Shown piece after piece: positions 2,016 to 22,782 of a DNA stretch of 64,000 bases (position 1 is its first letter; each line of letters begins with the position of its first letter). A program made the position numbers and the translations under genes. The DNA is taken from positions 32,001 through 96,000 of the forward strand of contig CAVPBK010000003.1 of assembly GCA_963701855.1 (NCBI GenBank), given 5' to 3'. This stretch comes from Nitrospirota bacterium. Lineage in GTDB: Bacteria; Nitrospirota; Nitrospiria; Nitrospirales; Nitrospiraceae. The notes below the pieces were generated by a model, which had not been told where the DNA came from, ran no database searches, and saw only the letters and a list, made by a program, of their open reading frames with translations.

Positions 2016-2092
2016 GCCAAAATTTCTCCTTGCACATTACACATATTCATAAGTGGAACCTTGCGATGGTCTGTAGCGGTGGCCTCGTAAGT

Positions 2093-2133
2093 CCCCGTCA
2101 AGGAGACATTTTGAAAGTGTCTCCTTGACGGGG
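2093..2133. repeat. Local hairpin CCCCGTCAAGGAGACA-n9-TGTCTCCTTGACGGGG (mirror copy at 2520-2560)
   Basis: Perfect 16-bp stem read from the sequence. Confidence 0.9.
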
Positions 2134-2639: not shown

Positions 2640-4376
2640 ATGGCAATCGTTACAGTAAAAGCCTACTCCGAGAACACATCAGACTTCAAAATAACCAGAA
2701 ATGAAATCCTGATTTCCATAGTTCAAGAGAATGTTTGGTCCACACAATTTGATCTTCGTATCCCAACGCCTAATGAAGACACGAATCGTATTCAGGTCAC
2801 CTGCTTGTTTTGTGCTGAAGAAGCATACTTCCTTAGCCATGATCGCCAAATACTTCCTTTATCTTCTAAGGCATCACCTCCCTTTCCTGTAGGTTGTATT
2901 CTTTGGTTACAAGAAGGGGATATGCTGTGCCAAATTGATTTGCCTAAATATCCATATTTGAGGCTGTGCAAACAAGGAAACCAGGTCACTGCTACGTTTG
3001 TAATTCAAGATAGATTGGGTTCAGGGCTTATTCTCTGGGGCGACTCTAAGATTAGAAAACCTCCTATTATTAAGAAACAAATCCACATTAGGGCAAACAG
3101 ACTCAGATCACTTCAGGAAGCTGCTTGGCTTGAACCATATCCGAACGGTGCGCGTTCTGTTATTTGTTTAACTGACCACCCAGATTTTGATACCGTTCCA
3201 AAACTTCGCCTACAACACGAGCTTTTTTCTGAAAACAGTTTTCGTATTACAAAGGGGGTATTCCCTAGCAGTGATTATGGGTCAGGTAAAATGGAGCCTG
3301 GTTTAGATGTCCCTGAATATAAAAACTACATTGACAAGATGTATGAAAGCGGCTCTGAAATAGCCTACCATGGTCTAAGTCCACGGAAAAATCTTCCCTC
3401 ACTCTCGGAGTGTTTGCGTAGAATTCAAATGATGAGCATGTATTCTCCAAAAACATGGATTGATCACGGGTGTGGAGCGTACCTATTTTCAAGAGATGCT
3501 GTTTTTAAAGAAGGGGACGGCTTGTTGGACATATTAAGTAAAGCCGGAATTGAAAACTACTGGTCCTATACCGATGTTTGGGAAAATCCGGTACGGCATT
3601 TAGATGTTTGGGAGCATAGAAAAGTATTCAGCGCCTTCTCAAATTTCTTGTCGTTCTTGTGGGACACAGAGCGCGTGAGCGCCCCGCTGATGGCTTACTA
3701 TGGCAGTTCTGTATATAAGAACTTGTTAAGCCCTAACCATTTACATCATATAAAAGAGCCGTGGAGAATGGGTGCATGGAAACTTGTTGCTGAGCATAAT
3801 CGCCGCCTAAAGTATTATCATGAAAATCCAATGGTTCTTTATGATTTAAGCGGACAATCTAGTCTCATGAGCGATCAGAGCATATGGGTTTTTGATACAG
3901 TGCTGCTCAATCATTTAGCGTTTCAACTGAGGCCTGCGAATATTGATTTACTATGCCAGCAGAATGGCTTGTTAGTGGCCCATTGTTACTTTGGTCATCA
4001 AAGAAATAGATATGGGACAATGAACTGTTTTGTTAACGATGGCAATCAGCTATCACTGATTCCGGAATTTATTGAAGCTGTTAAGAATATCTCGGAAAAG
4101 CAAAGTCAAAGGGAGTTAGTTACGTTACCTTTTAATGCATTGCGTAATGCATTAACCAATTTCGTCAATGCATCATTAATACGTACTTCAAGTGGCTGGG
4201 AAATAAAGGCCATCAATGCAATTGTAGTCAGCCAAAATTCTATACCAATCCTGGAACCAATTAGGCAATGGTGCAAAGGGAAATTGTATTACGCGGAAGT
4301 AGAAGGGCAATCAGTACTTCCGATGCCAGTTCAAGGTATTCATCATGATGACCGCATACCGGTGGCGATTCAGTAG
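2640..4376 (+). CDS. Hypothetical protein, AT-rich; central region resembles a polysaccharide deacetylase/GH57-like barrel
   Basis: 578-aa ORF with AAGGAG RBS; motifs PYPNG...LTDHPD, EIAYHG, TWIDHG; visibly lower GC than the rest of the window. Confidence 0.75.
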   Translation: MAIVTVKAYSENTSDFKITRNEILISIVQENVWSTQFDLRIPTPNEDTNRIQVTCLFCAEEAYFLSHDRQILPLSSKASPPFPVGCILWLQEGDMLCQIDLPKYPYLRLCKQGNQVTATFVIQDRLGSGLILWGDSKIRKPPIIKKQIHIRANRLRSLQEAAWLEPYPNGARSVICLTDHPDFDTVPKLRLQHELFSENSFRITKGVFPSSDYGSGKMEPGLDVPEYKNYIDKMYESGSEIAYHGLSPRKNLPSLSECLRRIQMMSMYSPKTWIDHGCGAYLFSRDAVFKEGDGLLDILSKAGIENYWSYTDVWENPVRHLDVWEHRKVFSAFSNFLSFLWDTERVSAPLMAYYGSSVYKNLLSPNHLHHIKEPWRMGAWKLVAEHNRRLKYYHENPMVLYDLSGQSSLMSDQSIWVFDTVLLNHLAFQLRPANIDLLCQQNGLLVAHCYFGHQRNRYGTMNCFVNDGNQLSLIPEFIEAVKNISEKQSQRELVTLPFNALRNALTNFVNASLIRTSSGWEIKAINAIVVSQNSIPILEPIRQWCKGKLYYAEVEGQSVLPMPVQGIHHDDRIPVAIQ

Positions 4377-4460
4377 CGGACAAACTCCGCGGGCTTGACG
4401 GGGGAGCTTACGATCGGAGGGGTACTCTGAAGAAAAAACCGAAAAAGACGGGGAACGACG

Positions 4461-7193
4461 TTAGGGACTAGGATTGAGGATGACTCTGAAGATGCGGTGG
4501 TTAGATTCGCCATAGTTGCCATTTGCCACATAGATATACCCATCCTGCCCCAGCACATTCAATCCGTGCATGACCGCGATCAACGCACCATTTCCACCGG
4601 GGTAGGCGATCGTATGACTGGAGAGGGCTGTCAACTCTGCTCCACCAAGCACGATTCGATGAAGTTGGCCGAAGTTGTAATCGGCGAACAGTAAGTTGTT
4701 GTAATATTGCGCCGGATAGGCGGAATCTTCTCTGATTGTGACGATCCCGGTTGGCGCAATGGTGGGGGTGGTGGAGGTGCCGAAGGTGATGATAGGATCA
4801 ATCCACCGTGGATCATTGCAAATTCCTAGACAAAGAGGGTATCCATAATTCCCGCCGGCAATGATCCTATTAATCTGATCATCAGTGGTATCACCGTTCT
4901 CGGTCTGCCACAAGTCATTCGTATGGGGATGGAACGTGAACCCGAAGCTATTGCGATGGCCATAACTGTAGATCGCGGAGAAAGGATACAGAAGATTATT
5001 CGGAGGATTAATGAAGGGATTGTCGGACGGAATTCCTCCATTCGGATTGATCCGCAACATTTTTCCTCTAAGCGTACTCAAGCTCTGTGAATCCCTTACT
5101 TCGTTGTCCCCTACAAAAATATAAAGCATTCTGTCCTGGCCGAACTGGAGAATGCCTCCGTTGTGAGGGTTGCCGGCAGGAATGTTGCCAAGAATCACTG
5201 TGGGCGGATCGCTTGTGGCCACAGTATATCCATTCGAATCAGTTGTGGCAGTTAACCGAACCACTCGGTTCTTCGGACCGGATGCGGTGGTGTAGTACAC
5301 ATACACATAGTGGTTATCGCTGAAACCGGGATCGACTGCGATGCCGAGCAACCCCTTTTCAACCCCGGTCACAAAATCATCCTTAGTGGAGGTGAAAGTG
5401 TAAAACGGTACAGATTGCAACTTCCACGGAGGCGTGGCGGTCGGCGTGACCACCTGGATATTACCGGTAATTAGTTCAGTCACAAAGATCCGTCCGTCCG
5501 GAGCCGTGGCCATCGCGACCGGGAAATTCAAGCCGCTCGCAACTTCTAGGAGGGAAAAATTTCCGCTCGTCTCAGTCGCGATGGTAAAATTAAGAGTTTT
5601 CTGCGTTGTTGGCAACTCTATATCCGATTGATCCACCAGCACGAATTTGACCTGATGAGAACCGGATGCTAAGGCATTGAGTTGAATTGAACTGCCGGAC
5701 TTCCAATGCACGGCGTGGGTATGACCGTACTGCTGGGTATTGGGGTCCGGATAACGAACCCCGCTCGTATCGCCAATTTCGGTGATCACTGGTCCATCGT
5801 AGAATTTGTAGATGGCGCGGTCATCGTCGACGTAGAAATGCATCCGTGGCTGAGTGGCCGAGTGCGGTACTGGAGAATTCTGAATATTGAACGAGACCGG
5901 CACAGGCCCGGGCGGCAAGGGAGCCCCTTGGGCAGGACTATTGATGGTCAATGTTGGAGGAGCAGGTTGAGCCTGAATGCTGATGTTCAGGATGGGCGGG
6001 TTGGCCTCCGCGTTCTGCAGGTCAATGTGACTAGAAGTGGCAAGAACAAGTCGAATCGAATGGCAACCGCTTGGGAGGTCGGTAATCTCGAACGAACTGT
6101 TGCTCAGCCAGGTGATGTTGGTAACAGGCTGTCCGCTGTTATCAAGTACCTTTTTGGTGTCTCCGTTGAAGAAGTGGTTCGTGGTGGTTCCGCCGTCCAG
6201 ATAGATATGGAGATGAGGGGCCCCCTGACCTCCGATCGTAGAATCCTGGGCTGTAAACGACACGTCGACAGGGTCCAATGGCAATGAAGCTCCCTGTGAT
6301 GGGCTCGTGATGGTCAACGGCGGAAAGGGAAACGAGGAGGCGAGGATCGTGATCGGCACCGAGTCGGGCGTGGCCTCCTTGTTAACAAATTCGTTATCTG
6401 AGGCAGTGGCTAACCTCACAGTGACTTGATGTGTGCCAGGAGACAATCCGTTCAGTCGAAACGAAGTGGGACTTTGCCATTGAACATCGGGGGTGGGTTG
6501 TCTGTTGTCGTCTACCACCTTGTTGGATTGTCCGTTGTTGCATTGTCCGTTGAAGAAATGGCGAGTTGCTCCCCCATCCACCGTGATGTGGAGGTGCTGC
6601 TGCCCCTGTCCTCCGACGACGAAGTGCTGAACAGCGAACTCTACGATAACCGAAAACGATCCGAGATCCGGATCGGTGGGAGTCGTGACCGTGAGGGTGG
6701 CCGGCGGCGGCTCGCTTCCTAAAAGCGAAACTAAAAGATCTTCAACGCCCAAGATCACATTAAGAAGCGGGTTCTGGGGCGTCGCTCTCCCGCTACTCAT
6801 CGTGACGGCTCCCAAATCAAGAGATCCCGCCGTCTGCATAGTGAACACGTTTGTCGGTGGATTCCCACCATAGAGAGGGAACGTCTGGCCTGCGCTAAAG
6901 AAGACAATCTCGACCGGAAGCCCGACCGGAATATTTGAGAGAGCAAATGGGAACGGAGGAGGGCCGGGTAGAGGCGCGGTATCAAATTGAGAAATGAGGG
7001 CCTTCGTGTCGGCCCGTAACACCTTGATGACGGTCCCGGAGACCGTCCCGGTGACGGTTGTGGAACCAGTAGCTGGCGCAAGGGGAGTGGGGGTACTTCC
7101 TCCACTAGACCCGCCGCCGCTGCATGAACTCAGAGCAAGCAGGAGTGTGGCGCAGGTCAAGAGCTTACTGAACAAGTTGGTCAATACCTTCAT
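4461..7193 (-). CDS. Lipoprotein with three Ig-like His-containing repeats and a C-terminal PQQ-dependent glucose/sorbosone dehydrogenase (GSDH) beta-propeller
   Basis: Lipobox LALSSC; GSDH motifs EKGLLGIAVDP, HNGG, GKMLRINPNG, YSYGHRNSFG, GGNYGYP. Confidence 0.9.
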   Translation of the reverse strand: MKVLTNLFSKLLTCATLLLALSSCSGGGSSGGSTPTPLAPATGSTTVTGTVSGTVIKVLRADTKALISQFDTAPLPGPPPFPFALSNIPVGLPVEIVFFSAGQTFPLYGGNPPTNVFTMQTAGSLDLGAVTMSSGRATPQNPLLNVILGVEDLLVSLLGSEPPPATLTVTTPTDPDLGSFSVIVEFAVQHFVVGGQGQQHLHITVDGGATRHFFNGQCNNGQSNKVVDDNRQPTPDVQWQSPTSFRLNGLSPGTHQVTVRLATASDNEFVNKEATPDSVPITILASSFPFPPLTITSPSQGASLPLDPVDVSFTAQDSTIGGQGAPHLHIYLDGGTTTNHFFNGDTKKVLDNSGQPVTNITWLSNSSFEITDLPSGCHSIRLVLATSSHIDLQNAEANPPILNISIQAQPAPPTLTINSPAQGAPLPPGPVPVSFNIQNSPVPHSATQPRMHFYVDDDRAIYKFYDGPVITEIGDTSGVRYPDPNTQQYGHTHAVHWKSGSSIQLNALASGSHQVKFVLVDQSDIELPTTQKTLNFTIATETSGNFSLLEVASGLNFPVAMATAPDGRIFVTELITGNIQVVTPTATPPWKLQSVPFYTFTSTKDDFVTGVEKGLLGIAVDPGFSDNHYVYVYYTTASGPKNRVVRLTATTDSNGYTVATSDPPTVILGNIPAGNPHNGGILQFGQDRMLYIFVGDNEVRDSQSLSTLRGKMLRINPNGGIPSDNPFINPPNNLLYPFSAIYSYGHRNSFGFTFHPHTNDLWQTENGDTTDDQINRIIAGGNYGYPLCLGICNDPRWIDPIITFGTSTTPTIAPTGIVTIREDSAYPAQYYNNLLFADYNFGQLHRIVLGGAELTALSSHTIAYPGGNGALIAVMHGLNVLGQDGYIYVANGNYGESNHRIFRVILNPSP

Positions 7194-7420
7194 AGGCTAT
7201 GAGTGAGGTTCTTTCTGGTTCGCGGCGAGCCGACACTCTGAGGCCTCCGCCCCTTTCCTCATGCGATTTTGACGGCGATGATGCCCTATTGTGCTCTAGC
7301 AAAACAACCCCGCATAAGCGGGACGGATACCTCATACAGGGGGAGTGGTATCTCATAAGTGCATGGGATATCTATCATATTATTTATTCTTGGTGCATCA
7401 GAGGGGGCTGTTGGAGGGAA

Positions 7421-7613
7421 CTAGGAGCCTGTCCGACAGTGACCGTTCTACTGTGGCAAATGATCTGTGACCATCTGCGTCGTTCTCGCCAGAAAAAATC
7501 CTCAACGCATCGTATTCCAGCGAATACACTTCCTGTTTTTCCTGGCCTTGCACCGCTCATATGGCCGCACCTCCTTTTCCTCGTCACGATGGCAATGTAG
7601 GACAGGCTCCTAG
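7421..7613. mobile_element. MITE-like element with terminal inverted repeats and CTAG at both ends
   Basis: CTAGGAGCCTGTCCGACAGTG ... CAATGTAGGACAGGCTCCTAG; no transposase inside. Confidence 0.75.
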
Positions 7614-8176
7614 GGCAGTTTCAAGTGCCGCATGCAACTGATGGTCTCCGCCGATAGCTGTGTCTGCCCTGCGTCGTATTCCGGGCAGCCTCGCGGCCAC
7701 AATGCTGAGGGCTCGTCCCGATACCGCGGCTATCGTTCAGAACGCATCGCCGTGGGCCAGCTCCAGGCTCAGGGTCTTGCGTGCTTCGACGTTCAAGTGC
7801 CTGTCGTATTTTTTGGCATGGCAACACCAGAGCTTACTAAGCCCTGCAGTATTGCGCGTGGAGTTAGAGCTTAAGCCTCCTAAGCCTCGTACACTCCCTC
7901 TAAAGAGGGGCTGGTCGATGGAACCGATGAAGGGTACTCTAGTGACATGTGATCCTGGAAAGGCCCGGGATGTGCTCTCCGAACCGAACCTTCTCGTATT
8001 ATTATTAAGGAGCGTCAACCATATTCTCGAATCCTTAGTCAACACTTTTGCTGCTCCTCCGGTGGCGCCAGGGAGGAATGTGCGAAAACCTTTCGTGAAT
8101 GTGTCTGGTTGTATGAGAATTCCTGGTTCGTCCGATCGTACATAGCTCTCATTAAGAGTATTGGACTGGCATACGC

Positions 8177-8572
8177 ATGAGTGACAGAGTTGCACAAGCA
8201 GTCGAACGTTGGACCGAGGAGGACAGACCCATGTCGGACCCACTGCAGGTAGCTCCACCCCCGATTGCCTCCGAGCCTGTCGTCGACATCACGATGCTGG
8301 ATCGGACCATCCTATGGCCCAGCCCTGATGTGCAGGGCACAAGCATGGAGGGCGAGACGGTGCTGTTGGATCTCAGTACCGGGCGGTACTACACCCTGAA
8401 CCGGTTGGGGAGCGTCATATGGGACCACTGTACCGGCCACAACACCGTCAGTGACATTCATGCGGTCCTGTGCGACCGCTTTGAGGTCTCTCCTGATCGG
8501 GCCCTGGACGATCTCATTGCCCTGATCAACCAATTGGTCAAGGAGGGGCTACTTCAACAGGAAAGGAGGTGA
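8177..8572 (+). CDS. PqqD-family RiPP recognition element (lasso B1-like); start may be 8231
   Basis: ETVLLDLSTGRYYTLNRLGSVIW...LCDRFEV...DLIALINQLVKEGLL is the typical PqqD/RRE pattern. Confidence 0.92.
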   Translation: MSDRVAQAVERWTEEDRPMSDPLQVAPPPIASEPVVDITMLDRTILWPSPDVQGTSMEGETVLLDLSTGRYYTLNRLGSVIWDHCTGHNTVSDIHAVLCDRFEVSPDRALDDLIALINQLVKEGLLQQERR

Positions 8573-8578
8573 GAAAGA

Positions 8579-8722
8579 GTGAATGAAAAGAAAGAGGTGT
8601 ATGTCCAGCCAGTGCTCGTAACGCATGAGTTGCTGCGGGACATCACTGCGAAGGCTTCTGGCGGTCATCATGGGAACTTCTCGTTTGGCCGTTTGTTTGG
8701 TTTTTTCCATGGCCATCGCTAG
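8579..8722 (+). CDS. RiPP precursor peptide with lasso-type leader, 47 aa: MNEKKEVYVQPVLVTHELLRDITA-KASGGHHGNFSFGRLFGFFHGHR
   Basis: GTG start 8 nt after AGGAGGT; YxxPxL leader motif and LRDIT motif; directly follows the RRE gene; too short for the supplied ORF track. Confidence 0.88.
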   Translation: MNEKKEVYVQPVLVTHELLRDITAKASGGHHGNFSFGRLFGFFHGHR

Positions 8723-8735
8723 ATAAGTCAGCATG

Positions 8736-8771
8736 GGCTGGTCGATTCATAAGAATCGGCCAGCCGTTTTT
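8736..8771 (+). terminator. Hairpin plus T-tract after the precursor gene (leaky terminator or stabilising stem)
   Basis: GGCTGGTCGATTC-ATAA-GAATCGGCCAGCC followed by GTTTTT. Confidence 0.75.
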
Positions 8772-8819
8772 CTCACGAGACGTGACGGCGTAGGTGACAA
8801 TCATCAGTGGGGGAACAGT

Positions 8820-9857
8820 ATGACGATGACCGTGGTCGAAAAGCCTATGGCCGAGTCTCTATTTTCCCTCTACGGCACGGCGGTGAGATATGCCACGGCG
8901 TCGCCCTTGTTGGCCGCACCGGTGAATGAGTTTCTGAGGCATTTTCGGCGGGACTCCCTTGAGGAGTCAGCCTCTTTCACCTTGTGCTTCCAGGCTGTGC
9001 AGGAACGAGCGGACATTCCGCTGACGATATCTTCATCGGCGCGTCAATTATCTTCCGGAACGGGTGCAGCGGTCGGGGATCGGCGGGAGACCGGGTTGCC
9101 CTACGAGGTGATTCAAGATGGTGGGCGGTTGATTGCGGACTTTTTCGATGCCGGAGTCCTGGTGATGGATGGCGAGCAGGGCAAGGCTGACGGCTATCTG
9201 ATCAAGCCGGAGACCATGCACGCGAGCTTGATCGAATATTTCTTTCACCTCGCCTTGATCGAACTCTTACGACGCCGTGGGCTCTATACGATTCATGCGA
9301 CTGCGCTGGAGAAACATGGCCGTGGAGTCTTGATTCCAGGGAATAGCGGCCGCGGCAAGACGACGTCCTTTATCTCGCTACTCCGCTCGGGCTATCGATA
9401 TCTCTCGGATGATCTTCCGTTGATTCGAGATGCCGGGAGGCATGTGGAGGTGCTCCCCTTTCCCACCAAGATTAACGTCACCGAAGCGACGATCGCCTTT
9501 TTCCCGGAACTCCTGGATGCGCCTGATCACGTGCTTCATCCCGGTTCGCCCAAGCGGTCTTTTCATGCCGAGGATCTGTATCCGACCTCGGTGGGCGACC
9601 GCTGTCAGCCGGCCATCATGCTGTTCCCCCATGTCGTCGATGCCCCTCACAGTCACCTTGAGCTCCTCCCCAAGAGCCGGGCCCTGGAAGTCCTCCTCCC
9701 ACAGGCATTGCTGGTCTATGATCCAGAGGTGGCTAGACGAGAATTTCAAGTCTTAGCGAGCCTGGTGCAGCAGGTGGACTGTTACCGCTTGCATTTTGGC
9801 CACGATATCCTCGACTTGCCGAAGTTGATCACGCCGCTGCTAGAGCAACGAAGATGA
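8820..9857 (+). CDS. HPr-kinase-like peptide kinase (lasso-cluster type)
   Basis: HATAL...GVLIPGNSGRGKTT...GYRYLSDD (His, Walker A, SDD); ATG at 8820 preferred because 8733 overlaps the hairpin. Confidence 0.85.
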   Translation: MTMTVVEKPMAESLFSLYGTAVRYATASPLLAAPVNEFLRHFRRDSLEESASFTLCFQAVQERADIPLTISSSARQLSSGTGAAVGDRRETGLPYEVIQDGGRLIADFFDAGVLVMDGEQGKADGYLIKPETMHASLIEYFFHLALIELLRRRGLYTIHATALEKHGRGVLIPGNSGRGKTTSFISLLRSGYRYLSDDLPLIRDAGRHVEVLPFPTKINVTEATIAFFPELLDAPDHVLHPGSPKRSFHAEDLYPTSVGDRCQPAIMLFPHVVDAPHSHLELLPKSRALEVLLPQALLVYDPEVARREFQVLASLVQQVDCYRLHFGHDILDLPKLITPLLEQRR

Positions 9858-11077
9858 TAGCGACCAGGCAGTTCTCATTGCGACCGGAATCGGAGCTCTT
9901 GGTCTGGTGTGCCCGTACGGTCGTGACCGATGAGCTCAAGGTCCGTATCCAGCAGAGAGTGCAAGAGCCGCTTGACTGGGAATATGTCCTCAACCTGGCT
10001 CAATATCATGGTGTGGGCCCCCTGTTGTATCGGAATCTGTCCACACTTTGTTCCGATCTCGTGCCTGCCGAATCGTTGACTCAGTTACGCCAGAGGACAC
10101 AAGCCGGTGCCTTGCTCAACCGGTTGCTCGTCCAGGAACTCGTCGTCTTATGCGACGCGTTTGTCGCGCAGGGAGTGCCGGTCATGCCCATTAAAGGGGC
10201 GACCCTGGCGTCCTCAGTCTATGGCGATCTGACGCTTCGCGACTTTAGCGACATGGACCTGCTCATTCCCAAAGGCTCCATTGCAGAAGCGCACGCCATC
10301 TTGTTGGCGCGGGGCTATGAGAGGAAAGACCCTTCTTCTGATCCTGGTGAGAGGGACCATGAGGATGGGCCTTACCATGTGTTTATCAAGAAGCGCACGC
10401 TCTTTCGTGTCGATCTCCAGTGGGTGATGGCAGGTGAGCACTTTGCGTTTCAGTTGGATCGTCCCGAGTTCTGGCAGCGCCGAACGGCTGTTCCGCTTGC
10501 GAACAAGACGGTACAAGGACTGACCCCGGAAGATCTATTGATCGTCCTGTGTGTCCATGGGTCGAAGCATGCATGGGACTCGCTCAAATGGGTATGCGAT
10601 GTCGCCGAGCTGCTTCGTGCACACAACCAACTGGACTGGGATCGGATCTCCTCGAGCGCATCGAGGTGGCGCTGCCGACGCCTGCTGTCTATGGGGTTGT
10701 CGCTCGCACATCTGGTGTTGGATGCCCCACTACCCAAGACGGTTCGCGCGCGGCTCTCCGCCGACTCAGATGTGCAGATGCTGTCCCACCGTATGCCATT
10801 CACTCTCCTGGCAGATCGTCGTGCCGGCGTGAATGAGGCACAGGCAGTTGCGCTCTATTTCACGTTGAAAGATTCGTGGTGGGAGCGTTGGCGGTTTGGC
10901 CTGATGCTGTGTCGTGACCAGAGTCCTATGGTCACAACCCCTCCAGCCTGGTTTCGCTGGCGCATCTCCCTTCCGCGTCTTGCTCGGCTCGTTCTCCCCC
11001 TTCACCGGACCATGAGGAGTCTGTTTCCCTCCACGATTCGGGGCGCTATCAATCGTTGGGTCGAGCACGGTGGTTAG
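9854..11077 (+). CDS. Nucleotidyltransferase family protein (NTP_transf_5-like)
   Basis: PIKGATLASSVYGDLTLRDFSDMDLLI motif; CVHGSKHAW...LKWVCD; ATGA overlap with the kinase. Confidence 0.88.
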   Translation: MIATRQFSLRPESELLVWCARTVVTDELKVRIQQRVQEPLDWEYVLNLAQYHGVGPLLYRNLSTLCSDLVPAESLTQLRQRTQAGALLNRLLVQELVVLCDAFVAQGVPVMPIKGATLASSVYGDLTLRDFSDMDLLIPKGSIAEAHAILLARGYERKDPSSDPGERDHEDGPYHVFIKKRTLFRVDLQWVMAGEHFAFQLDRPEFWQRRTAVPLANKTVQGLTPEDLLIVLCVHGSKHAWDSLKWVCDVAELLRAHNQLDWDRISSSASRWRCRRLLSMGLSLAHLVLDAPLPKTVRARLSADSDVQMLSHRMPFTLLADRRAGVNEAQAVALYFTLKDSWWERWRFGLMLCRDQSPMVTTPPAWFRWRISLPRLARLVLPLHRTMRSLFPSTIRGAINRWVEHGG

Positions 11078-11353
11078 TCATCTTCTGGTTTGAACCTTCT
11101 GGGAAGCCCATCTGTCGAGTCCCACACAGAAAATGGTTCGGATCTGCTGCGTCACTCGCTATGGTCTGCATTGTCTTTAATTGCTCTGCCGAAGAAATTG
11201 GAAATACATCACGGCCGACAGCCATGCCTCGTGGGTCGCGACGGGAGGTTGGGCGCCTCCCATGGCGCACCAGGATTATCAGAGCGCGTGGTCTTGGATT
11301 TGGAAACGGCGGATGCTGGAATTCTCATTGAGGCTTGCTACACTGAACGCACT

Positions 11354-11824
11354 ATGATCCGATTCGTAAAAAAGTATTGGACCCTGCTGCGCGCAGGCCT
11401 GGTAGTGTCGTGGATTCGTCTCTTGTTGCGGGTCAAGAGTTTGCCACTGGTGCTGGACCGATTAAATCCTCGCTCGACAATGGAAAGACCCGACGAGGCA
11501 GTGATGGGGGATCTGGTCTGCTATGTAGATCGCTGGCTTCAACTGTTTCCCTATAACAAAAAGGGGAATTGCTTCCCACGGTCGCTGGCTCTCTATTGGT
11601 TCGCCAGGCGATTGGGGTATCCGGTTCTCTTTCATTGTGGTGTAAGAAAAGAAGCCTCGAATCTCGATGGCCATGCGTGGCTCACATTGGATGGCCAGCC
11701 TTTTCACGAGACGGGCCAGCATTGGCAACGGTTCACCGTTACCTTTTCGCATCCTCAGGATCCGACAGTTGGGACGCAGGCCTCTGCCCTCCGGCGTCAG
11801 AACAACAGGACGACGATGTCCTGA
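11354..11824 (+). CDS. Lasso peptide B2-type leader protease (transglutaminase-like)
   Basis: NCFPRSLAL...GVRK...GHAWL Cys/His motifs; ATG 11354 chosen over TTG 11090. Confidence 0.9.
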   Translation: MIRFVKKYWTLLRAGLVVSWIRLLLRVKSLPLVLDRLNPRSTMERPDEAVMGDLVCYVDRWLQLFPYNKKGNCFPRSLALYWFARRLGYPVLFHCGVRKEASNLDGHAWLTLDGQPFHETGQHWQRFTVTFSHPQDPTVGTQASALRRQNNRTTMS

Positions 11825-11839
11825 CGAGGCATTCATCAC

Positions 11840-13666
11840 GTGTTCCCGTCACCGATGAACATCATTCTGAATCGCATCCGCCCCTTCCTCCTGACGCTTC
11901 GCCACGCTCTCTTGTTTGTGTGGCAGAGCAGCCCGAGTCTGGCAATCGGCAGTATCGTGGTGCGCGTGATCCAAGGCCTTCTTCCGCTGGTGGCGCTGTA
12001 TCTGACGAAGTTGTTGATCGATGCCGTTGCCGAAGGGCTCAAGGCTCCATCAGCCGAAGGCTCCTTGAGCGGGATGGCCATGATTCTTGCTGGGTTGGCA
12101 GGTGTCGCGGTGGCCAGTGCCATGCTCACCGGCGTGGCCTCTCTGATTTCAAGGATTCATGCTCAAGTCGTCACGGATCATATGCACGCACTCCTTCAGG
12201 CAAAGTCCGTCGAGGTCGATCTTGAGTACTACGAGAATGCGCGCTATCAAGATACGCTCCATCGCGCACAAGAAGAAGCGCCTTATCGTCCGACGGCGAT
12301 TCTCAACGCCTTGCTCCAATTTGGCCAGGATGCCATTTCACTGTTTGCGATGGCAGCCATACTCTGGTGGTTGCATTGGGGGGTGATCCCGATCTTGATG
12401 CTGACGGCCATCCCGTACTTTTTCGTCCGTCTGCAGCAATCCAATCGACTGTTTGCCTGGGAGCGCGAGCGGACGCCGCTTGAGCGGAAAGCCTGGTACG
12501 TCAATATGCTGCTGACCCAAGCGATTGCAGCGAAAGAAATCCGGCTGTTCGACCTCGGCCCTCGGTTGCGGCAATGGTTCCAAGACGCGCGATCAGTGCT
12601 GCGTCGAGAACGGATCGCGTTAGAGCGCCGATGGGCGCTCGCGGGTTTTGCCGCGCAGATCATCGGCGTGGCCGGTGTGTTCGGGGTCTACAGTTTTGTG
12701 GCGTTCCGAACGTTTCAGGGGCTGCTCACCGTGGGCGACCTCGTCATGTTTTTCCAGGCGGTGCAGCGGGCCTCCGGATTCCTGGAGAGTTTGGGACAGA
12801 GTGTGTCCAGCCTCTATGAGAGCAATTTGTTCCTAACCACGTTGGATGAGTTTCTGGGTATTCAGTCTCGTTTGCCGAAGTCGGCACATCCGAAGTTGTT
12901 TCCCCAACCGATCGCGCAGGGGATTACATTCGATCATGTGTCCTTCCAATACCCGCATGAAGAACGTGTGGCGATCCAGGAGTTCACCTTTACGATCAGA
13001 CCCGGCGAACATGTCGCGTTTGTCGGAGCCAATGGGGCGGGGAAGACGACGCTGGTGAAGCTCCTATGCCGTCTGTACGATCCGTCGGGGGGGCGCATCA
13101 CGGTCGATGGTGAAGATCTTCGGAACTATCCCCTTGCCGATGTCCGTGGCGCCGTCAGCGGAATTTTTCAGGACTTTGTGAAGTTCCAGTTTTCGGCCAA
13201 GGACAACATCTCGTTGGGCCTGAGATCCCCCGACATCGACCTTTCCGCCGTCACGCAGGCGGCCAAACAGGCTGGGATCCATGAGGCCATCGAGCGTTTG
13301 CCGAAGGGGTACGAGTCATTGCTCGGCAAGCTGTTCGACGGCGGGCATGAACTGAGCATCGGGGAATGGCAAAAAGTGGCGCTCGCCAGGGCCATCCTTC
13401 GCGATTCTCAGATCCTGATTCTCGACGAGCCTACCAGCGCGATGGATGCCAAGGCCGAAGCGGAATTGTTCGAGCGGTTTCACGAACTCACTCAAGGGCG
13501 TATGGCGATTTTGATCAGTCATCGACTGGCTACTGTCAAAATGGCCGACTGTATTTTTGTCCTCGATCACGGCCAAATTGTGGAACGGGGAACCCATGAT
13601 GAGTTGATGCGACGGCAGGGGCTCTACGCCACGCTTTTCCTCACCCAAGCCCAGCATTATCAGTAG
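11840..13666 (+). CDS. ABC exporter, fused permease/ATPase
   Basis: TM helices, Walker A GANGAGKTT, signature LSIGEWQK, ILDEPT, ISHR. Confidence 0.95.
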   Translation: MFPSPMNIILNRIRPFLLTLRHALLFVWQSSPSLAIGSIVVRVIQGLLPLVALYLTKLLIDAVAEGLKAPSAEGSLSGMAMILAGLAGVAVASAMLTGVASLISRIHAQVVTDHMHALLQAKSVEVDLEYYENARYQDTLHRAQEEAPYRPTAILNALLQFGQDAISLFAMAAILWWLHWGVIPILMLTAIPYFFVRLQQSNRLFAWERERTPLERKAWYVNMLLTQAIAAKEIRLFDLGPRLRQWFQDARSVLRRERIALERRWALAGFAAQIIGVAGVFGVYSFVAFRTFQGLLTVGDLVMFFQAVQRASGFLESLGQSVSSLYESNLFLTTLDEFLGIQSRLPKSAHPKLFPQPIAQGITFDHVSFQYPHEERVAIQEFTFTIRPGEHVAFVGANGAGKTTLVKLLCRLYDPSGGRITVDGEDLRNYPLADVRGAVSGIFQDFVKFQFSAKDNISLGLRSPDIDLSAVTQAAKQAGIHEAIERLPKGYESLLGKLFDGGHELSIGEWQKVALARAILRDSQILILDEPTSAMDAKAEAELFERFHELTQGRMAILISHRLATVKMADCIFVLDHGQIVERGTHDELMRRQGLYATLFLTQAQHYQ

Positions 13667-13876
13667 TCGAGGTCTTGTGAATAGCTGGGCGCATTCACAA
13701 ACCATGTGTAACATTTATGGGAGAAAATGCTGCATGGGAAAAATCTACACACAGTTGAGTTTTCAAGAACCGACGATCATCCATAGGCAAATGGAGGTAT
13801 GCCTCGAATTCACTCAACTCCGTTGACGGAAACGCGACATTCTGCCATTCTAATCGAAACTTAACGGAGAGGCTTT

Positions 13877-15178
13877 ATGGCTCAAAAGAAAGAGACCGGA
13901 CGAAAGGTTGCGCTTGTTGGACTTGGTTATGTGGGGCTTCCTATCGCCGTTGCCTTCGGCAAGCGGGGAAAGGTCATCGGGTTCGATATCAACAAAGCAA
14001 AGATTGCAGAACTGCAGAGGGGCGTTGACCGAACGGGGGAAGTGTCGGCGGCCGACCTCAAAGTCGCTGATGTACAGTATACTTCGGAGCCTACCGACCT
14101 CAAGGCCGCCGACTTTATCATTGTGGCTGTTCCAACTCCGATCAATGAAGCGCTCCAGCCGGATCTCAAGGCGCTACGAATTGTCTCGGAATTGATCGGT
14201 AAAAACATGTCCCCTGGTACGATCGTTGTCTATGAGTCTACGGTGTACCCTGGAGTGACAGAGGATGTTTGTCTCCCTATTCTGGAAAAGACTTCCGGCC
14301 TCAAATCAGGCATTGACTTCAAGGTTGGATATTCACCGGAGCGCATCAATCCAGGGGACAAGGAGCATACTCTCGAGAAGATCGTCAAAGTCGTTTCGGC
14401 TCAAGATGCAGAGTCGCTTGAAGTCGTCGCGAATACCTATTCACTCGTCGTGAAGGCCGGGGTCCATCGGGCTTCAAGCATTAAGGTTGCGGAAGCAGCC
14501 AAGGTGATTGAGAACACGCAGCGCGATCTGAACATTGCATTGATGAACGAGCTGGCTCTCATTTTCCATCGTCTCGGAATCGATACCAAGTCGGTCTTAG
14601 ACGCTGCCGGGACGAAGTGGAACTTTCTGAAGTTTTTCCCAGGATTAGTCGGCGGACATTGTATTGGTGTGGACCCATATTATCTGACCGCTAAGGCTGA
14701 ATCGGTCGGCTATCACCCGCAAGTGATTCTGGCTGGTCGGCGCATCAATAACGGGATGGGAAAGTTCGTTGCAGAGCAAACGATAAAGCTGCTCGGTCAA
14801 CTTCCCCGGCCAGCCAACGAACTCAAGGTGGCAGTCTTAGGACTCACGTTTAAGGAAAATGTGCCGGATCTGCGCAACAGCAAAGTGCTCGATATTATCC
14901 AGGAGTTGCGTGAGTATGGGGTTCAAGTGTTGGTGCATGATCCGATCGCAGAACCGGAAGAGGCGGTCGCTGAATACGGAATTCATCTGCAGCAGTGGAA
15001 CGATCTGAAGAACGTCGATGGGATGGTTATTGCGGTGGCCCACCGCTCGTATGCGGAGATGGGCCTGCAGGAATTGCTCAAACCTCTCCGCAGTCAGCGG
15101 GAGGGCGTGGTTATTGATGTGAAATGTCTGCTTGATCAGGCGAAACTGCCCAAGACGCTCAAGTACTGGCGTTTATAA
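13877..15178 (+). CDS. Nucleotide-sugar dehydrogenase (UDP-GlcNAc/GalNAc 6-dehydrogenase, WbpO/TviB-like)
   Basis: GLGYVGLP, YESTVYPG, SPERINPGD, GLVGGHCIGVDPYYL, GLTFKENVPDLRNS. Confidence 0.95.
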   Translation: MAQKKETGRKVALVGLGYVGLPIAVAFGKRGKVIGFDINKAKIAELQRGVDRTGEVSAADLKVADVQYTSEPTDLKAADFIIVAVPTPINEALQPDLKALRIVSELIGKNMSPGTIVVYESTVYPGVTEDVCLPILEKTSGLKSGIDFKVGYSPERINPGDKEHTLEKIVKVVSAQDAESLEVVANTYSLVVKAGVHRASSIKVAEAAKVIENTQRDLNIALMNELALIFHRLGIDTKSVLDAAGTKWNFLKFFPGLVGGHCIGVDPYYLTAKAESVGYHPQVILAGRRINNGMGKFVAEQTIKLLGQLPRPANELKVAVLGLTFKENVPDLRNSKVLDIIQELREYGVQVLVHDPIAEPEEAVAEYGIHLQQWNDLKNVDGMVIAVAHRSYAEMGLQELLKPLRSQREGVVIDVKCLLDQAKLPKTLKYWRL

Positions 15179-15446: not shown

Positions 15447-17804
15447 ATGAATAGTCCGGGCAATAGCATCGTAAGACATACCGCAGCGGGGGCGTGCTGT
15501 GCCATTGTGGCAATGGCATTTCTCGCCGGCTGCGCGTATTTCAATTCACCTGACATCAAGCGTGGGGATCAACATCTCGCAGCGGGTAATTGGGAGGAGG
15601 CGAGTCTCGCCTATAAGAACGCACTGAAGGATGATCCCTTCAGCCCAACATTACAGAGCAAATACACCATGGCTCGAGAACGAGCTGCGGCGTCGTATGA
15701 GGAGCGAGGACGGGCGTATCTCAAAGAACGTCAGCCGGACCTCGCAGCGGAACAGTTTAAGCGGGCACTCACCATCGAACCGTCCAGTCTCGATCATCAA
15801 TCGGGGTTGCTTGAAGCGCTTCGCTTGACTGATGCGCGCGGCCGGAATCGAGAGGCAGCCCGCCTCGCCCAGCTCGGTCGGATCGACGAGGCCATGGAAG
15901 CCTATGCCAGAGCGGCTGAGCTGGATCCTTCATTCAAAGAACCCCTTGAGAGTATCTCCAAACTCACTGAGGAGCAGCAGGCGTTCAACCGTGACGATCG
16001 GCGGAAGCAGCCGGTGACACTTAAGTTCCGTAATGCCGGACTCAAAGAAGTCTTGGAAGGGATTGGAAAGGCCGGAGGGATCAACCTCATATTCGACAAG
16101 GACGTCAGAAATGACCCCGTGACCATCAGCGTTCAGGACACGCCATTCCAAGAAGCCTTCAATCTCATTCTCAACAGCAATAGCCTGTTCGCCCAAACCG
16201 TATCTCCGGACGTCATGATCGTCAGCCCTAATACCAAGCAGAAGCAGGAGCAATATCAAGATCTGATGATTCGGACGTTCTACTTGTCCAATGCCAAAGC
16301 GAAGGACATGCTGGTATTGCTGAAGAGCATGCTCGATTCAAAGCGGATGCATGCCAATGAACAACTGAACACGATTATCATCCGGGACCAACCGGAAAAA
16401 CTGGAGATGGCTGAAAAGATCATCTTGGCCAATGACCGCCTGGACTCCGAAGTTCTTTTTGATGTTGAGGTTCTCGAAGTCGATCGCACGACCAACCAGA
16501 CCTATGGTCTGACCTATCCTAAGCAAATCGCAGCCGCCATGGTACCTCCGGGGTTTACGGCACCAATCAGCGGAGATTTCTCACCGACGTTCACGCTTCG
16601 TCAGCTCACCAGCCTCGGTCAGGACAGTTATCTCTTTAAACTTCCAACCAACATCCAGCTGGATTTCTTTAAAACGATCACCGATGCCAAGACCCTTGCC
16701 AACCCGAAAGTTCGCGTGGTGAACAACAAGAAAGCGGAGATTAACGTCGGGGACAAGCAGCCGATCCTGCTTTCCACAACGAATGTCTTGCCAGGTCAAG
16801 CGGCAACAGGGGCAGTTCCGACGACCTCGACGGTAACCTCGATCGAATTCCGCGACACCGGAGTCAAATTAACCGTTGAGCCTTCCATCCATCTGGGGAA
16901 TGAACTGTCTCTGAAGATGAAGATTGAAGTCATTAGTCTTGGCGATCGAGTTGTGCTCCAAGCCAGTCCCCTCATTTCCCAGTTTAAGTTCGGCAATCGG
17001 TCGGCGGAAACCCAGCTCAATGTTAGAGATGGTGAAACCATTGTGTTGGGAGGGCTGATCCAGGAAGAGGATCGCAAAACCCGCACCACCATCCCCTGGA
17101 TCGGTGATCTTCCTTTTATTGGCAATCTATTAAGTTCCTTTATAACCAGCAGGGTCACTACTGAGGTGATCCTGACGATCACGCCACACATCATTCCAGA
17201 TAGGACTCCTCCCGGGCTCAGTAAGCAGGTGTTCTGGTCCGGGACGGATTCAACCTATGCCACGAGCCCGCTGTTTACGCCACAGGGGAAGAAGGCTTCC
17301 TTGATGGGAAGTGGACCCGTTTCAGGGTTCTCATTGTTGGGCGAAACGGCAAAAGGGGGACTGGCAGGGAAGCCAGCTGCAGCGTCACTCACTCCCTTGA
17401 ATTCGGTAGGCGCGGTCGCCTCGATCAGGCCAAACGAGTCGGTGATCCAAATGGGAAAAGAATTTAAGCTTGCCATCAATGACGAACGTCTTCGTCCCAC
17501 GGCGGAAGGCGTATTTCAACTTCAGTATGATCCACAGGTGCTGGAACTCAGAACACTCCTGAATGGTGAGGTTATCCAAGACGGCACAGGCGATCAGACG
17601 TCTCGCAGTCCAGAGACGCAAGCGGGGACGGTTGCTTTTAAAGTCGCACCATCAGCAAGACAGGCAGGCGGGCGGACCGTCACGGCCACCTTCTATGCCA
17701 AGGCGTCCGGTGTGTCTCCTGTGCGTGTGGCGTTGGTGGATTCCGCCGCGGGATCATCCACGGCACTGTCCCAAGAAGGAAAAGGTATCGTGAGGGTCCG
17801 GTGA
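15447..17804 (+). CDS. gspD: Secretin (GspD/PilQ family) lipoprotein with N-terminal TPRs and a C-terminal cohesin-like domain
   Basis: Lipobox LAGC; AKTLANPKVRV, DTGVKLTVEP, GETIVLGGLI, IPWIGDLPFIGNL, LTITPHII. Confidence 0.9.
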   Translation: MNSPGNSIVRHTAAGACCAIVAMAFLAGCAYFNSPDIKRGDQHLAAGNWEEASLAYKNALKDDPFSPTLQSKYTMARERAAASYEERGRAYLKERQPDLAAEQFKRALTIEPSSLDHQSGLLEALRLTDARGRNREAARLAQLGRIDEAMEAYARAAELDPSFKEPLESISKLTEEQQAFNRDDRRKQPVTLKFRNAGLKEVLEGIGKAGGINLIFDKDVRNDPVTISVQDTPFQEAFNLILNSNSLFAQTVSPDVMIVSPNTKQKQEQYQDLMIRTFYLSNAKAKDMLVLLKSMLDSKRMHANEQLNTIIIRDQPEKLEMAEKIILANDRLDSEVLFDVEVLEVDRTTNQTYGLTYPKQIAAAMVPPGFTAPISGDFSPTFTLRQLTSLGQDSYLFKLPTNIQLDFFKTITDAKTLANPKVRVVNNKKAEINVGDKQPILLSTTNVLPGQAATGAVPTTSTVTSIEFRDTGVKLTVEPSIHLGNELSLKMKIEVISLGDRVVLQASPLISQFKFGNRSAETQLNVRDGETIVLGGLIQEEDRKTRTTIPWIGDLPFIGNLLSSFITSRVTTEVILTITPHIIPDRTPPGLSKQVFWSGTDSTYATSPLFTPQGKKASLMGSGPVSGFSLLGETAKGGLAGKPAAASLTPLNSVGAVASIRPNESVIQMGKEFKLAINDERLRPTAEGVFQLQYDPQVLELRTLLNGEVIQDGTGDQTSRSPETQAGTVAFKVAPSARQAGGRTVTATFYAKASGVSPVRVALVDSAAGSSTALSQEGKGIVRVR

Positions 17805-18307
17805 AAGAATCGGGCGTGACTCTTTTGGAACTCCTGATCACGCTGACCATTGTGATGGTGCTCGCCTCTGTGGCTATGCCGCTCAGCCGTCTGTCAGTGA
17901 AACGGACTCACGAAATAGAACTGCGGCAGCATTTGAGGATCATGAGGGCTGCCATCGACACCTTTAAGCTGGAGTGGAACCGTGATGGCGACGTCTTATT
18001 GGGGGCGGCATGTGTAAAAAATAAGCTCACGTGCAAAGACGTGACGAGTGTGTACGGATATCCGAAGTCGCTGGATAGACTGTTGGGGATCAAGCTCACC
18101 AGTGAAGAGGCGACGATTAGGGGCACGACGACGAAGCGCTATTTAAGAAATCTTCCCCTCGATCCCTTGACCGGCAAGGCCGATTGGTTGTTCCGATGTT
18201 ATAAAGATGCGCCGAACGCATCGAGTTGGTGTGGGGACGACGTGTACGACGTGATGACTCAAAGTCAGGACATAGCACTAGATGGCACAAAGTATCGAGA
18301 TTGGTAA
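17801..18307 (+). CDS. Pseudopilin (type II secretion protein G-like)
   Basis: Prepilin motif GVTLLELLI; YPKSLD, YLRNLPLDP. Confidence 0.9.
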   Translation: MKESGVTLLELLITLTIVMVLASVAMPLSRLSVKRTHEIELRQHLRIMRAAIDTFKLEWNRDGDVLLGAACVKNKLTCKDVTSVYGYPKSLDRLLGIKLTSEEATIRGTTTKRYLRNLPLDPLTGKADWLFRCYKDAPNASSWCGDDVYDVMTQSQDIALDGTKYRDW

Positions 18308-18683
18308 GAGTGGAGTACGGGGCACAAATGGTTTCACCTTGCTGGAACTGATGATCGTCGTGTCGATCATCGGTATTCTCGCCACCCTGGCGGTGCCCTC
18401 GTACCAATCATCGGTTGTGAAGGCCAAAGAGGCTGCCTTGCGTCAGGATCTCTCCACACTGCGCGATGTGCTGGATCAGCACAAGGCAGACCAGGGAAAG
18501 TATCCTCCGTCTCTATCGGCATTGGTGGGCACCGGGTATCTGCGGGGGATCCCAAAAGATCCCTTCACCGGTACAACGACCACGTGGCAAGAGATTACTG
18601 ATCCTGTTGAGAAAGGCGTGGTCGACGTCTTTTCAGGGGCCGAGTTTGTTGGGACGGATGGCACTCCGTATAATCGTTGGTAA
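18282..18683 (+). CDS. Pseudopilin (GspG-like)
   Basis: GFTLLELMIV; GKYPPSL...YLRGIPKDP. Confidence 0.92.
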   Translation: MAQSIEIGKSGVRGTNGFTLLELMIVVSIIGILATLAVPSYQSSVVKAKEAALRQDLSTLRDVLDQHKADQGKYPPSLSALVGTGYLRGIPKDPFTGTTTTWQEITDPVEKGVVDVFSGAEFVGTDGTPYNRW

Positions 18684-19558
18684 GAATGCCCATGCTCAAT
18701 CGTCATTGCAGATTGCTCCAGGCTTCAGTTGAAACAATACGTGCCTGTTATCCGACTGTGCGAGTTGGAGTTCTCTGTGCGGTCGGCTTCGCCTCAGCCT
18801 TGTTTGCGGGATGTGGCGAACTTGAGCCGATGCGTGAGCCGGAGGTCGTGGATCTTGAGTTGACTACAGACACGTTAAAAGCGTCAGTGCGCGATGCTCA
18901 GCGGACAGTGGTGGAGTTGCGGGCTGATCTTGAGACGCGGCGCATGGAATTGGGAGAAGCTCAGGTCGCTCGGGCGCAGCTTGAAGGACGGGTTAGAGAG
19001 GCGGAACGGCGGGTTATCGAAGCACGGCAGGTGATCGAACTGCAACGGGAAGAATTGGCCGCGGCTCGGACAGAACGGGAGCGTGTGTCCCGAAGTAGTC
19101 TTCAATTGCAGGGCCAGATGAAGCGGCTCCAGAAGCAGCTTGCAAAAGCGGGGATATCGGTCCCTGCTCATGACGGGCAGGAGGCGGCTCCACTATCTTC
19201 CAGCGGAGCGATGCACAAGGGCCAGAAGGCGATGCCGGTTTCCACACAGCGAAATGAGCCCTCAGAGCTTCCGGAGCCGTCTCAGACGGTGGCGACCCAG
19301 GCAGCTAAGAAGCCGGTGCCGGCCAACAGCGAGCCCTCGCCAGAGGTTGAGCAGCAGAGGACTCCAACAAAATATGTTTCCGTGAAACCCGGTGATACGC
19401 TCTGGAGGATTGCGCAGAAATATCGCGTCGATGTGGAAGATCTTCGGACACTCAATCTATTGACCGACAACAGGATTGTCATTGGCCAGGCCCTGTGGTT
19501 ACCAGATGATCGGACCGTGTCCAGAGTCGGTGCCGACAAGGGCGCGTCGATTCCGTAA
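18677..19558 (+). CDS. Coiled-coil lipoprotein with a C-terminal LysM domain
   Basis: LFAGC lipobox, heptad-rich middle, VKPGDTLWRIAQKY...LNLL...IVIGQAL. Confidence 0.88.
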   Translation: MVRMPMLNRHCRLLQASVETIRACYPTVRVGVLCAVGFASALFAGCGELEPMREPEVVDLELTTDTLKASVRDAQRTVVELRADLETRRMELGEAQVARAQLEGRVREAERRVIEARQVIELQREELAAARTERERVSRSSLQLQGQMKRLQKQLAKAGISVPAHDGQEAAPLSSSGAMHKGQKAMPVSTQRNEPSELPEPSQTVATQAAKKPVPANSEPSPEVEQQRTPTKYVSVKPGDTLWRIAQKYRVDVEDLRTLNLLTDNRIVIGQALWLPDDRTVSRVGADKGASIP

Positions 19559-19595
19559 GATTCCTGTTATCCGTCTGAAATTCCGTGCACGTCTG

Positions 19596-19774: not shown

Positions 19775-19776
19775 TC

Positions 19777-22779: not shown

Positions 22780-22782
22780 GCG

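Follow-up and report, generated by a model that had tools for sequence, protein, structure and literature searches.

The locus at positions 8177-13666 of the window (64,000 nt of contig C3 of the Nitrospirota assembly G000, whose genome is 97.1% complete in 15 contigs) raises the question of what can be made by a set of lasso-peptide-like genes that includes no lasso cyclase. The locus comprises six tightly spaced open reading frames (ORFs), all on the + strand, which were assigned from the ORF list and by Pfam and NCBIfam searches. In line with the preliminary description, they encode a recognition element (RRE) for a peptide made on the ribosome and modified after translation (RiPP), a precursor peptide, a kinase, a nucleotidyltransferase (NTase), a B2-type leader protease and an ABC exporter; also as described there, the window has no asparagine-synthetase-like ORF, and a search with PF00733 (Asn_synthase) gives no match anywhere on contig C3. 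The cluster is real and conserved, and almost certainly functional. We consider it, with a probability of about three in four, a working RiPP operon for a linear, unthreaded peptide, i.e. the B2-dependent Nitrospirota counterpart of the linear polyphosphorylated peptides (LPPs) of Bacillota, represented by the lppA-K-B-S-D-N cluster of Paenibacillus alginolyticus (Popov et al., Nat Commun 2026, PMC13381572).

The first gene (8177..8572) encodes a discrete PqqD-family RRE of 131 amino acids (aa), similar to lasso B1 proteins, with the PqqD domain (PF05402, E 5e-19) at residues 60-126. It is followed by the precursor gene (8579..8722), which starts at a GTG codon 9 nt after AAGGAGG and encodes a 47-aa peptide, MNEKKEVYVQPVLVTHELLRDITAKASGGHHGNFSFGRLFGFFHGHR, that has no family match. 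The third gene (8820..9857) encodes an HprK-like P-loop kinase, which is matched below the cut-offs by PF07475 (E 6e-6) and TIGR04352 (HprK-related kinase A; E 6e-16); the latter is its best NCBIfam match, yet with 58.3 bits against a cut-off of 200 the protein is not a member of that family. Its reading frame is open from 8733, but a start at 8820 is more likely, because a hairpin (8736-8765) lies within the annotated 5' end and because similarity to the orthologues begins at query residue 19-29 in 12 of 23 loci of the same type (in seven of the 23 it begins at residue 1-2). The NTase (9854..11077, 407 aa) belongs to the NTP_transf_5 family (PF14907, E 5e-63) and is similar to LppN and PsmN. 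The lasso-type B2 cysteine protease has a transglutaminase core and is recognized by NF033537 (47.3 bits, cut-off 33) and PF13471 (E 6e-18). In respect to its start, the ATG at 11354 is more likely than the beginning of the ORF at 11090 (the gene would thus span 11354..11824), and the stretch 11090-11353 is weakly conserved, and that in the five closest loci only. The last gene (11840..13666) encodes a 608-aa exporter with fused permease and ATPase domains (PF00664 and PF00005), for which the best NCBIfam match is MsbA (TIGR02203, 278 bits, under the cut-off of that model).

No lasso cyclase is found in the window or in the rest of the genome with PF00733 and the lasso-cyclase model NF033535. 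The six genomic matches to PF00733, all of them outside contig C3, comprise one strong hit (252 bits, contig C4) and five of 17.7-25.6 bits that cover 38-66 of the 354 profile positions. The strong hit is the glutamine-hydrolysing asparagine synthase AsnB (TIGR01536, 420 bits, cut-off 267), which scores 175 bits with NF033535 against a cut-off of 525; its neighbours encode glycosyltransferases, a methyltransferase and an ABC ATPase of the polysaccharide type. A genome-wide search for a cyclase or AsnB homologue, which the preliminary description had put forward as a check, therefore returns a single true Asn-synthase, and this one belongs to a glycosyltransferase locus. A signal peptidase I of the archaeal type (TIGR02228) gives no match in the genome at E<=0.01 either. 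The genome contains two copies each of B2, the NTase and the cluster-type PqqD protein, the second copies being those of a palindrome arm described below. A third PqqD-domain protein (155 aa; C4:270087-270287, also L017:9070-9537, - strand) is an orphan near an AAA_22/TPR protein, and it was dismissed as a RiPP component, with no recognizable RiPP enzymes beside it.

The arrangement is not peculiar to this contig. The NTase has 491 relatives at E<=1e-10, and all those with a named source belong to Nitrospira or Nitrospiraceae; a protein with 66% identity to the NTase is assigned by its source to Nitrospira lenta. A scan of species-representative genomes with the NTase gave 31 loci, all from Nitrospira or Nitrospirota metagenome-assembled genomes. 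In 25 of them, referred to here as type A (NTase 60-83% identical), the genes that are present always follow the order PqqD, precursor, kinase, NTase, B2 and ABC, with one to three precursor genes per locus; all six genes are found in 15 of the 25, while the remainder are cut by contig ends. The ORFs are intact across the 25 loci, at protein identities of 60-90%, and the exporter is 71-90% identical across the orthologous loci. A tblastn search with AsnB has no hit in any of the 25. Since the same query recovers the true cyclases of Nitrospiraceae at E 1e-24 to 1e-38, this miss is meaningful. Pfam searches of 46 flanking proteins from the eight longest loci likewise give no Asn_synthase. AsnB tblastn hits in three other loci (L045-L047), taken at first sight for a cyclase beside B2, were rejected, as Pfam identifies them as PurF (GATase and phosphoribosyltransferase domains).

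The catalytic motifs of the enzymes are conserved. Of 26 B2 rows from cyclase-less clusters, 25 retain the GNCFPR (Cys) and GHAW (His) motifs. All 44 aligned kinase rows have the P-loop (some loci are present twice in this alignment), as G-x-SG-x-GKTT in all 39 cyclase-less rows and as G-x-x-G-x-GKST in the 5 cyclase-linked ones, and the NTase motif KG...D[LMIV]D[LI] is found in 39/39 aligned rows. The AlphaFold2 model of the NTase is confident (predicted local distance difference test score, pLDDT, 89.6), and it retrieves with Foldseek only Pol-beta-type NTase cores, namely ANT(2'')-Ia, MenT1, FKRP and LnuA, with TM-scores to the query of 0.25-0.33; as a clue to the substrate the result was set aside, since it reports a generic NTase core, save for a weak resemblance to FKRP.

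Among 151 sampled Nitrospiraceae genomes (a set that includes three unpublished ones, G006, G053 and G076, which contribute no hits to any tally), 47 contain a homologue at E<=1e-40, and these belong to 9 of 39 genera. Of the 17 genomes from the window's genus, this one and a second, with a weak match, are the only ones to do so, and this sparseness suggests lateral acquisition of the cluster.

The precursors show the anatomy of a lasso leader joined to a core that differs from a lasso core. In the window peptide, Y8, P11, L13 and T23 mark the leader, cleavage is predicted after A24, and the resulting 23-aa core has no Asp or Glu. If the cut falls after Ala24, the spacing is Y-17, P-14, L-12 and T-2, as in lasso leaders, in which a Thr at the penultimate position is the rule (PMC10368454). 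Among 23 aligned type-A precursors the YxxPxL motif and the penultimate Thr (Y8, P11, L13, T23) are invariant or nearly so; the invariant positions are K5, E6, Y8, P11, H16, L18-L19-R20-D21-I22-T23-A24, S27 and G28, and all positions after G28 are hypervariable. The core opens with x-[K/R]-S-G, so that core positions 3-4 of the window peptide are Ser27-Gly28. The counts for the 26 precursors of type-A loci are 26 for Ser3, 25 for Gly4 and 21 for Lys or Arg at core position 2; Asp or Glu occurs at core positions 7-9 in 2/26, no acidic residue whatever is present in 11/26, and a C-terminal Ser is present in none. Gly makes up 31% of the core residues, Arg, Ser, Asn, His and aromatic residues are abundant as well, and sub-families can be recognized, such as the GNNG[F/W]GNG...DGVPG type, GNW repeats and GH repeats. 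With no cyclase and no acceptor Asp/Glu, the product of the window cluster cannot be a lasso peptide.

A profile search at E<=0.001 finds 611 relatives of the precursor in the databases, and those with a named source are all Nitrospira proteins annotated as 'hypothetical protein'. Of the best 120 of the 611, all have Ser3, 119 have Ser-Gly, 6 have Asp/Glu at positions 7-9 and 2 end in Ser; these counts are partly circular because the hits were picked by a profile containing those columns. The core length is 10-37 aa in the 26 locus precursors and 17-41 aa in the best 120 relatives, and in both sets the C-terminal residue is mostly Arg. A PDB sequence search with the 47-aa precursor returned only repeat-summed matches to designer pentatricopeptide repeat proteins, which are meaningless, and the score of a predicted RRE-precursor complex (0.57, with 0.46 for one control) was not used as evidence.

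Directly 3' of the precursor gene lies a terminator- or attenuator-like element (8736..8775), composed of a hairpin with a 13-bp stem and a 4-nt loop (8736-8765) and the T-run GTTTTTCT. A GC-rich hairpin of -15 to -31 kcal/mol is found 3' of the last precursor gene in 20/20 loci, whereas among 100 stretches of 140 nt drawn at random from these loci a value of -14 kcal/mol or lower occurs in only 5; the stem sequence varies between the loci and the pairing is kept. The hairpin probably makes precursor transcripts more numerous than those of the enzymes. The metatranscriptomes of two studies contain RNA-library contigs that cover the 3' end of the PqqD gene and the precursor gene at an identity of at least 99%, namely X3 (8278-8798, 3 mismatches), X16 (8591-8807, 2 mismatches) and X17 (8504-8758, 1 mismatch). 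They are weak evidence of transcription, and their depth and coverage along the operon can neither rank the genes nor show transcript ends. Rfam has no match within 7000-14000 of the window. A sigma-70 promoter scan of 7200-14000 gave no site on the + strand and fewer sites than shuffled sequences, and no promoter was assigned.

True lasso clusters of the same bacterial family provide the internal comparison. The lasso-cyclase model is above its cut-off in 4 of the 151 genomes, and together with two sub-cut-off matches six cyclase loci were examined. Five of them (G016, G018, G073, G142 and G123) have the order B2, AsnB-like cyclase, kinase and NTP_transf_5; a PqqD hit precedes B2 in four of these five complete clusters, none being scored in the G018 locus. 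For the sixth (G080), whose fetched stretch runs to the contig end, the cyclase was the only one of these genes present. Four of the complete clusters (L055 from G018, L056 from G016, L057 from G073 and L059 from G142) yielded a precursor, encoded directly after the cyclase gene, and none was found for G123 (L060). Their Tyr-to-Thr spacing is the same as in type A, and an Asp is present at core position 7, 8 or 9. The preliminary description had asked whether the absence of a cyclase goes together with Asp/Glu-free cores, and the two kinds of clusters bear this out: the four cyclase-bearing ones have Asp at 7-9, and the cores of the 25 cyclase-less type-A loci lack a conserved acceptor. None of the four cyclase-linked cores ends in Ser, so the target of their kinases is likewise not a paeninodin-type C-terminal Ser. 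The proteins of the cyclase-linked clusters are 24-38% identical to those of the window. In a quick maximum-likelihood tree of 39 NTases (midpoint-rooted for drawing only) all 32 cyclase-less sequences fall into one clade on a long branch, with a support of 99 in the SH-like approximate likelihood ratio test (SH-aLRT), and the cyclase-linked ones lie outside. The genome G142 carries a type-A cluster and a complete lasso cluster 1.8 Mb apart, thus the two systems coexist as separate units.

By analogy with the characterized systems, the following pathway can be proposed for the window cluster. The PqqD-type RRE would bind the YxxPxL motif of the leader, and the HprK-like kinase would phosphorylate the invariant core Ser3 (Ser27 of the window peptide, motif x-[K/R]-S-G), possibly several times. 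This residue, and not a C-terminal Ser as in paeninodin, is the predicted phosphorylation site. The NTP_transf_5 enzyme may then add a further group to the Ser phosphate, which would be a sugar if it works like the pseudomycoidin enzyme. With the peptide presented by the RRE, the B2 cysteine protease would cut after Thr(-2)-Ala(-1), and the MsbA-like ABC transporter would export the Gly/His/Asn/aromatic-rich, mostly cationic core. The linear, phosphorylated and perhaps further decorated peptide suggested in the preliminary description is therefore upheld as a prediction by analogy, as it matches the product reported for the analogous Bacillota LPP clusters. Its further suggestion, possibly a distinct RiPP class, loses its novelty: LPPs have been in print since May 2026 (PMC13381572), and the window cluster is a B2-type form from Nitrospirota of this published kind rather than a class of its own.

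Several points weigh against this reading. Gene content and order, the missing cyclase, the conserved catalytic motifs and the precursor anatomy are direct observations; each chemical step and the biological role are deduced, the chemistry wholly by analogy. The least secure step is that of the NTase, because the Bacillota LPP enzyme had no detectable activity in the heterologous host (PMC13381572). In the Nitrospira clusters, B2 would have to act without a cyclase partner. The known lasso-associated kinases act on a C-terminal Ser (PMC8498205), a residue absent from the Nitrospira cores. The RNA-library contigs may stem from carried-over DNA. Some relatives carry damaged genes next to intact enzymes: an in-frame stop interrupts the L025 precursor (3479-3589), whose leader is degenerate, and two in-frame stops interrupt the PqqD reading of L021 (1496-1882); in L047, B2 is degenerate. 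Finally, the conserved Ser follows the conserved Thr by four residues in the Nitrospira precursors and by three in the LPP precursors as published. The name 'Ser3' is therefore right for the Nitrospira cores only if the B2 cut falls one residue beyond the site used by the LPP peptidase, as is generally the case for lasso B2 enzymes.

The damaged genes of L025, L021 and L047, along with the split ABC gene in the left copy of the cluster in this assembly, are what would be expected if the locus were what is left of a degenerating lasso cluster, deprived of its cyclase and without a defined product. We regard such decay as extremely improbable, given the intact ORFs over 25 loci, the spread of homologues over 47 genomes and nine genera, the conserved catalytic motifs, the conserved hairpin after the precursor and the single clade of cyclase-less NTases apart from the cyclase-linked ones; an invariant leader and Ser-Gly followed by hypervariable cores is the pattern of a working RiPP family. 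The peptide might instead still be macrocyclized, by a cyclase encoded elsewhere or by an unrecognized enzyme, for example one using phosphoserine as the leaving group for a cross-link. The occurrence of type-A and separate complete lasso clusters in some genomes (e.g. G142) and the two ATP-grasp peptide maturases in a related cluster of other Nitrospirota speak for it, but this genome has no lasso cyclase, none of the six genes encodes an ATP-grasp protein, the cores have no conserved carboxylate (11 of 26 have none at all), and the complete lasso clusters bring their own RRE and B2 and, in four of five cases, their own precursor, which makes hidden macrocyclization very improbable.

A functional operon for a linear peptide, as preferred here, leaves two accounts of its origin. 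The cluster could descend directly from the Bacillota LPP family by horizontal transfer, with the signal-peptidase-like LppS later replaced by B2; this concerns only the origin and is compatible with the proposed mechanism. The same enzyme set (RRE, HprK-like kinase, NTP-transferase, MsbA-like pump), the similar leader, Y..P.[LV][VL].H[EQ]......T, and a conserved Ser near the cleavage site agree with such descent. However, the peptidase is of the lasso B2 type, no archaeal-type signal peptidase I (TIGR02228) was found in this genome, cyclase-bearing clusters with a kinase and an NTase exist in the same bacterial family, and an RRE profile built from 22 orthologues scores higher with the lasso proteins PbaB1 (9x90_B, 50.6 bits), TbiB1 (42.4) and TfuB1 (32.9) than with LppB (9x8z_B, 27.9), although bit scores are no phylogeny (the two PDB codes were assigned from PMC13381572). 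These scores lean, without being proof, towards the view that the cluster arose from lasso pathways apart from the LPP clade of Bacillota. We therefore find direct descent unlikely. A tentative proposal, to which we give somewhat less than even odds, is that a second route from lasso machinery to linear phosphopeptides arose in Nitrospirota on its own, without descent from the LPPs of Bacillota, with B1 and B2 kept and only the cyclase dropped.

Should the independent route be true, the loss of the cyclase together with phosphorylation of Ser3 would be a recurrent evolutionary outcome. The peptides may then have a specific role in nitrite-oxidising or comammox Nitrospira, e.g. in metal binding or in matrix and biofilm chemistry, or may be phosphate-masked antimicrobials that are unmasked outside the cell. 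In the reading of the cluster as an operon for a linear phosphopeptide, linear phospho-RiPPs extend from Bacillota to Nitrospirota, a phylum of environmentally important nitrifiers, which counters the published restriction, and the lasso B2 is retained in a cyclase-free pathway, which bears on the dependence of B2 on its partners. The family is large, with at least 611 sequence clusters at 90% identity and hypervariable, cationic cores rich in Gly, His, Asn and Trp; its invariant x-[K/R]-S-G and hypervariable Gly-rich cores are a natural substrate set for studying the kinase and the NTP_transf_5 enzyme. For RiPP-mining tools, the clusters provide a rule for loci that would otherwise be mis-called or discarded as 'incomplete lasso'.

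The 910-aa lipoprotein with a PQQ-dehydrogenase domain, the TviB-like dehydrogenase and the secretin that flank the cluster were rejected as members, as they lie beside the cluster in 0/31 loci, and because these flanks are not conserved in any locus, the six genes are taken as the unit. The TviB-like NDP-sugar dehydrogenase (TIGR03026, 382 bits, above cut-off) is located directly downstream of the exporter, within 13877-15178, and a secretin, a pseudopilin-like protein and type II secretion F/E-type proteins occupy 15447-23784. Published LPP clusters likewise adjoin polysaccharide genes (PMC13381572), and the neighbourhood seen in the window is not conserved in the other 31 loci. The start of the contig is a palindrome: C3:1-34327 corresponds to C3:34328-68395 (window 2328-36395) read in reverse complement, the two arms adjoin without a spacer, and the centre is near window position 2327, so that window 1-2327 mirrors 2328-4654. 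Over their outer 8.6 kb the arms are 99.8% identical; in the middle part, where the cluster is located, the figure is 92-94%, and at the centre it is 98%. The end of the contig is exactly where the left arm starts, and the ABC and dehydrogenase genes of that arm are split (frameshifted). The palindrome is probably a fold-back or strain-chimera artefact of the assembly and not a true duplication, and the second cluster copy upstream, which is one of its arms, was not counted as a paralogue.

Related variants occur in other Nitrospirota. A second cyclase-less cluster, called type B (L043:5100-11206, also L042, L018:7342-9134 and L020:7146-7980), encodes two ATP-grasp RiPP maturases (TIGR04187-like), PqqD, two precursors, an HprK-like kinase and NTP_transf_5, and also an OlsE-like protein of the fatty-acid-hydroxylase family. 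Its precursors have the same leader and cores that open with x-K-Y-R-E-K, with Tyr at position 3, and are rich in Lys, Glu, Ser, Thr and Asp; the cluster looks like a graspetide/LPP hybrid. Another cyclase-less variant (L045:7257-11197, also L046 and L047) is located between purF and an AhpC-like gene and has B2, PqqD, two precursors with 10-aa cores (QLSR-type motif), a kinase and an NTase, with no ABC exporter, while L024 has a six-gene type-A cluster in the same purL-purF / AhpC slot. In L021, a gene at 11262-13108 (- strand) encodes a peptidase of the type found in the Bacillota LPP clusters. In the lineage with an NTase 60-65% identical to that of the window, a PhoD-like phosphatase (PF09423) lies directly upstream of the cluster on the same strand in 6/6 loci with enough flank (L029:5126-7198, L033:5368-7443, L036:2768-4694, L037:2142-4201, L048:2509-4571 and L031:179-1506); the ORF that comes next is conserved, has no family match and encodes ~160 aa (111 aa in L036). 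As these loci are related, the adjacency may reflect shared ancestry rather than function.

Literature searches returned no account of lasso-like clusters that lack a cyclase, whether from Nitrospira or with B2, and three systems serve for comparison. The paeninodin and pseudomycoidin clusters share with the window B1, B2, the kinase, the NTase, the exporter and the leader register with Thr at -2. According to PMC8498205, their layout is B1/B2 with a kinase and an NTase, in which a C-terminal Ser receives a phosphate from the kinase, and this phosphate receives one or two hexoses from the NTase. What sets the window apart is that it lacks a cyclase, an acceptor Asp/Glu and the Ser at the C-terminus that is the target of their kinases. 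The complete lasso clusters of Nitrospiraceae come from the same bacterial family and have the accessory kinase and NTP_transf_5 as well as the Y-to-T leader spacing; they are unlike the window in their AsnB-like cyclase, in the core Asp at 7-9 and in their NTases, which lie outside the cyclase-less clade.

The third comparison is with the LPPs, as described in PMC13381572. The LPP biosynthetic gene cluster has an RRE, a kinase similar to HprK, an NTP-transferase and a pump resembling MsbA, with no cyclase, and the window has the same set (LppN was compared by description). Its heterologous expression gave a linear peptide that had lost its leader and bore 1-4 phosphates on core Ser3. Both the LPP and the Nitrospira clusters have 1-3 precursors with a conserved YxxP leader, a conserved core Ser3 and a hypervariable C-terminus. 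When the LPP motif YxxPxVLxHQxIxFETxxS is set against the window precursor, the Y, P, hydrophobic pair, H, [Q/E] and T align, while the distance from Thr to Ser is longer by one residue and D-I takes the place of F-E ahead of the Thr. The core of LppA, with 45 aa, is longer than the Gly-rich Nitrospira cores. The LPPs are described as restricted to Bacillota, and their leader peptidase LppS is a signal peptidase I of the archaeal type, the feature by which the family was discovered; in the window, which comes from Nitrospirota, the place of LppS is taken by B2.

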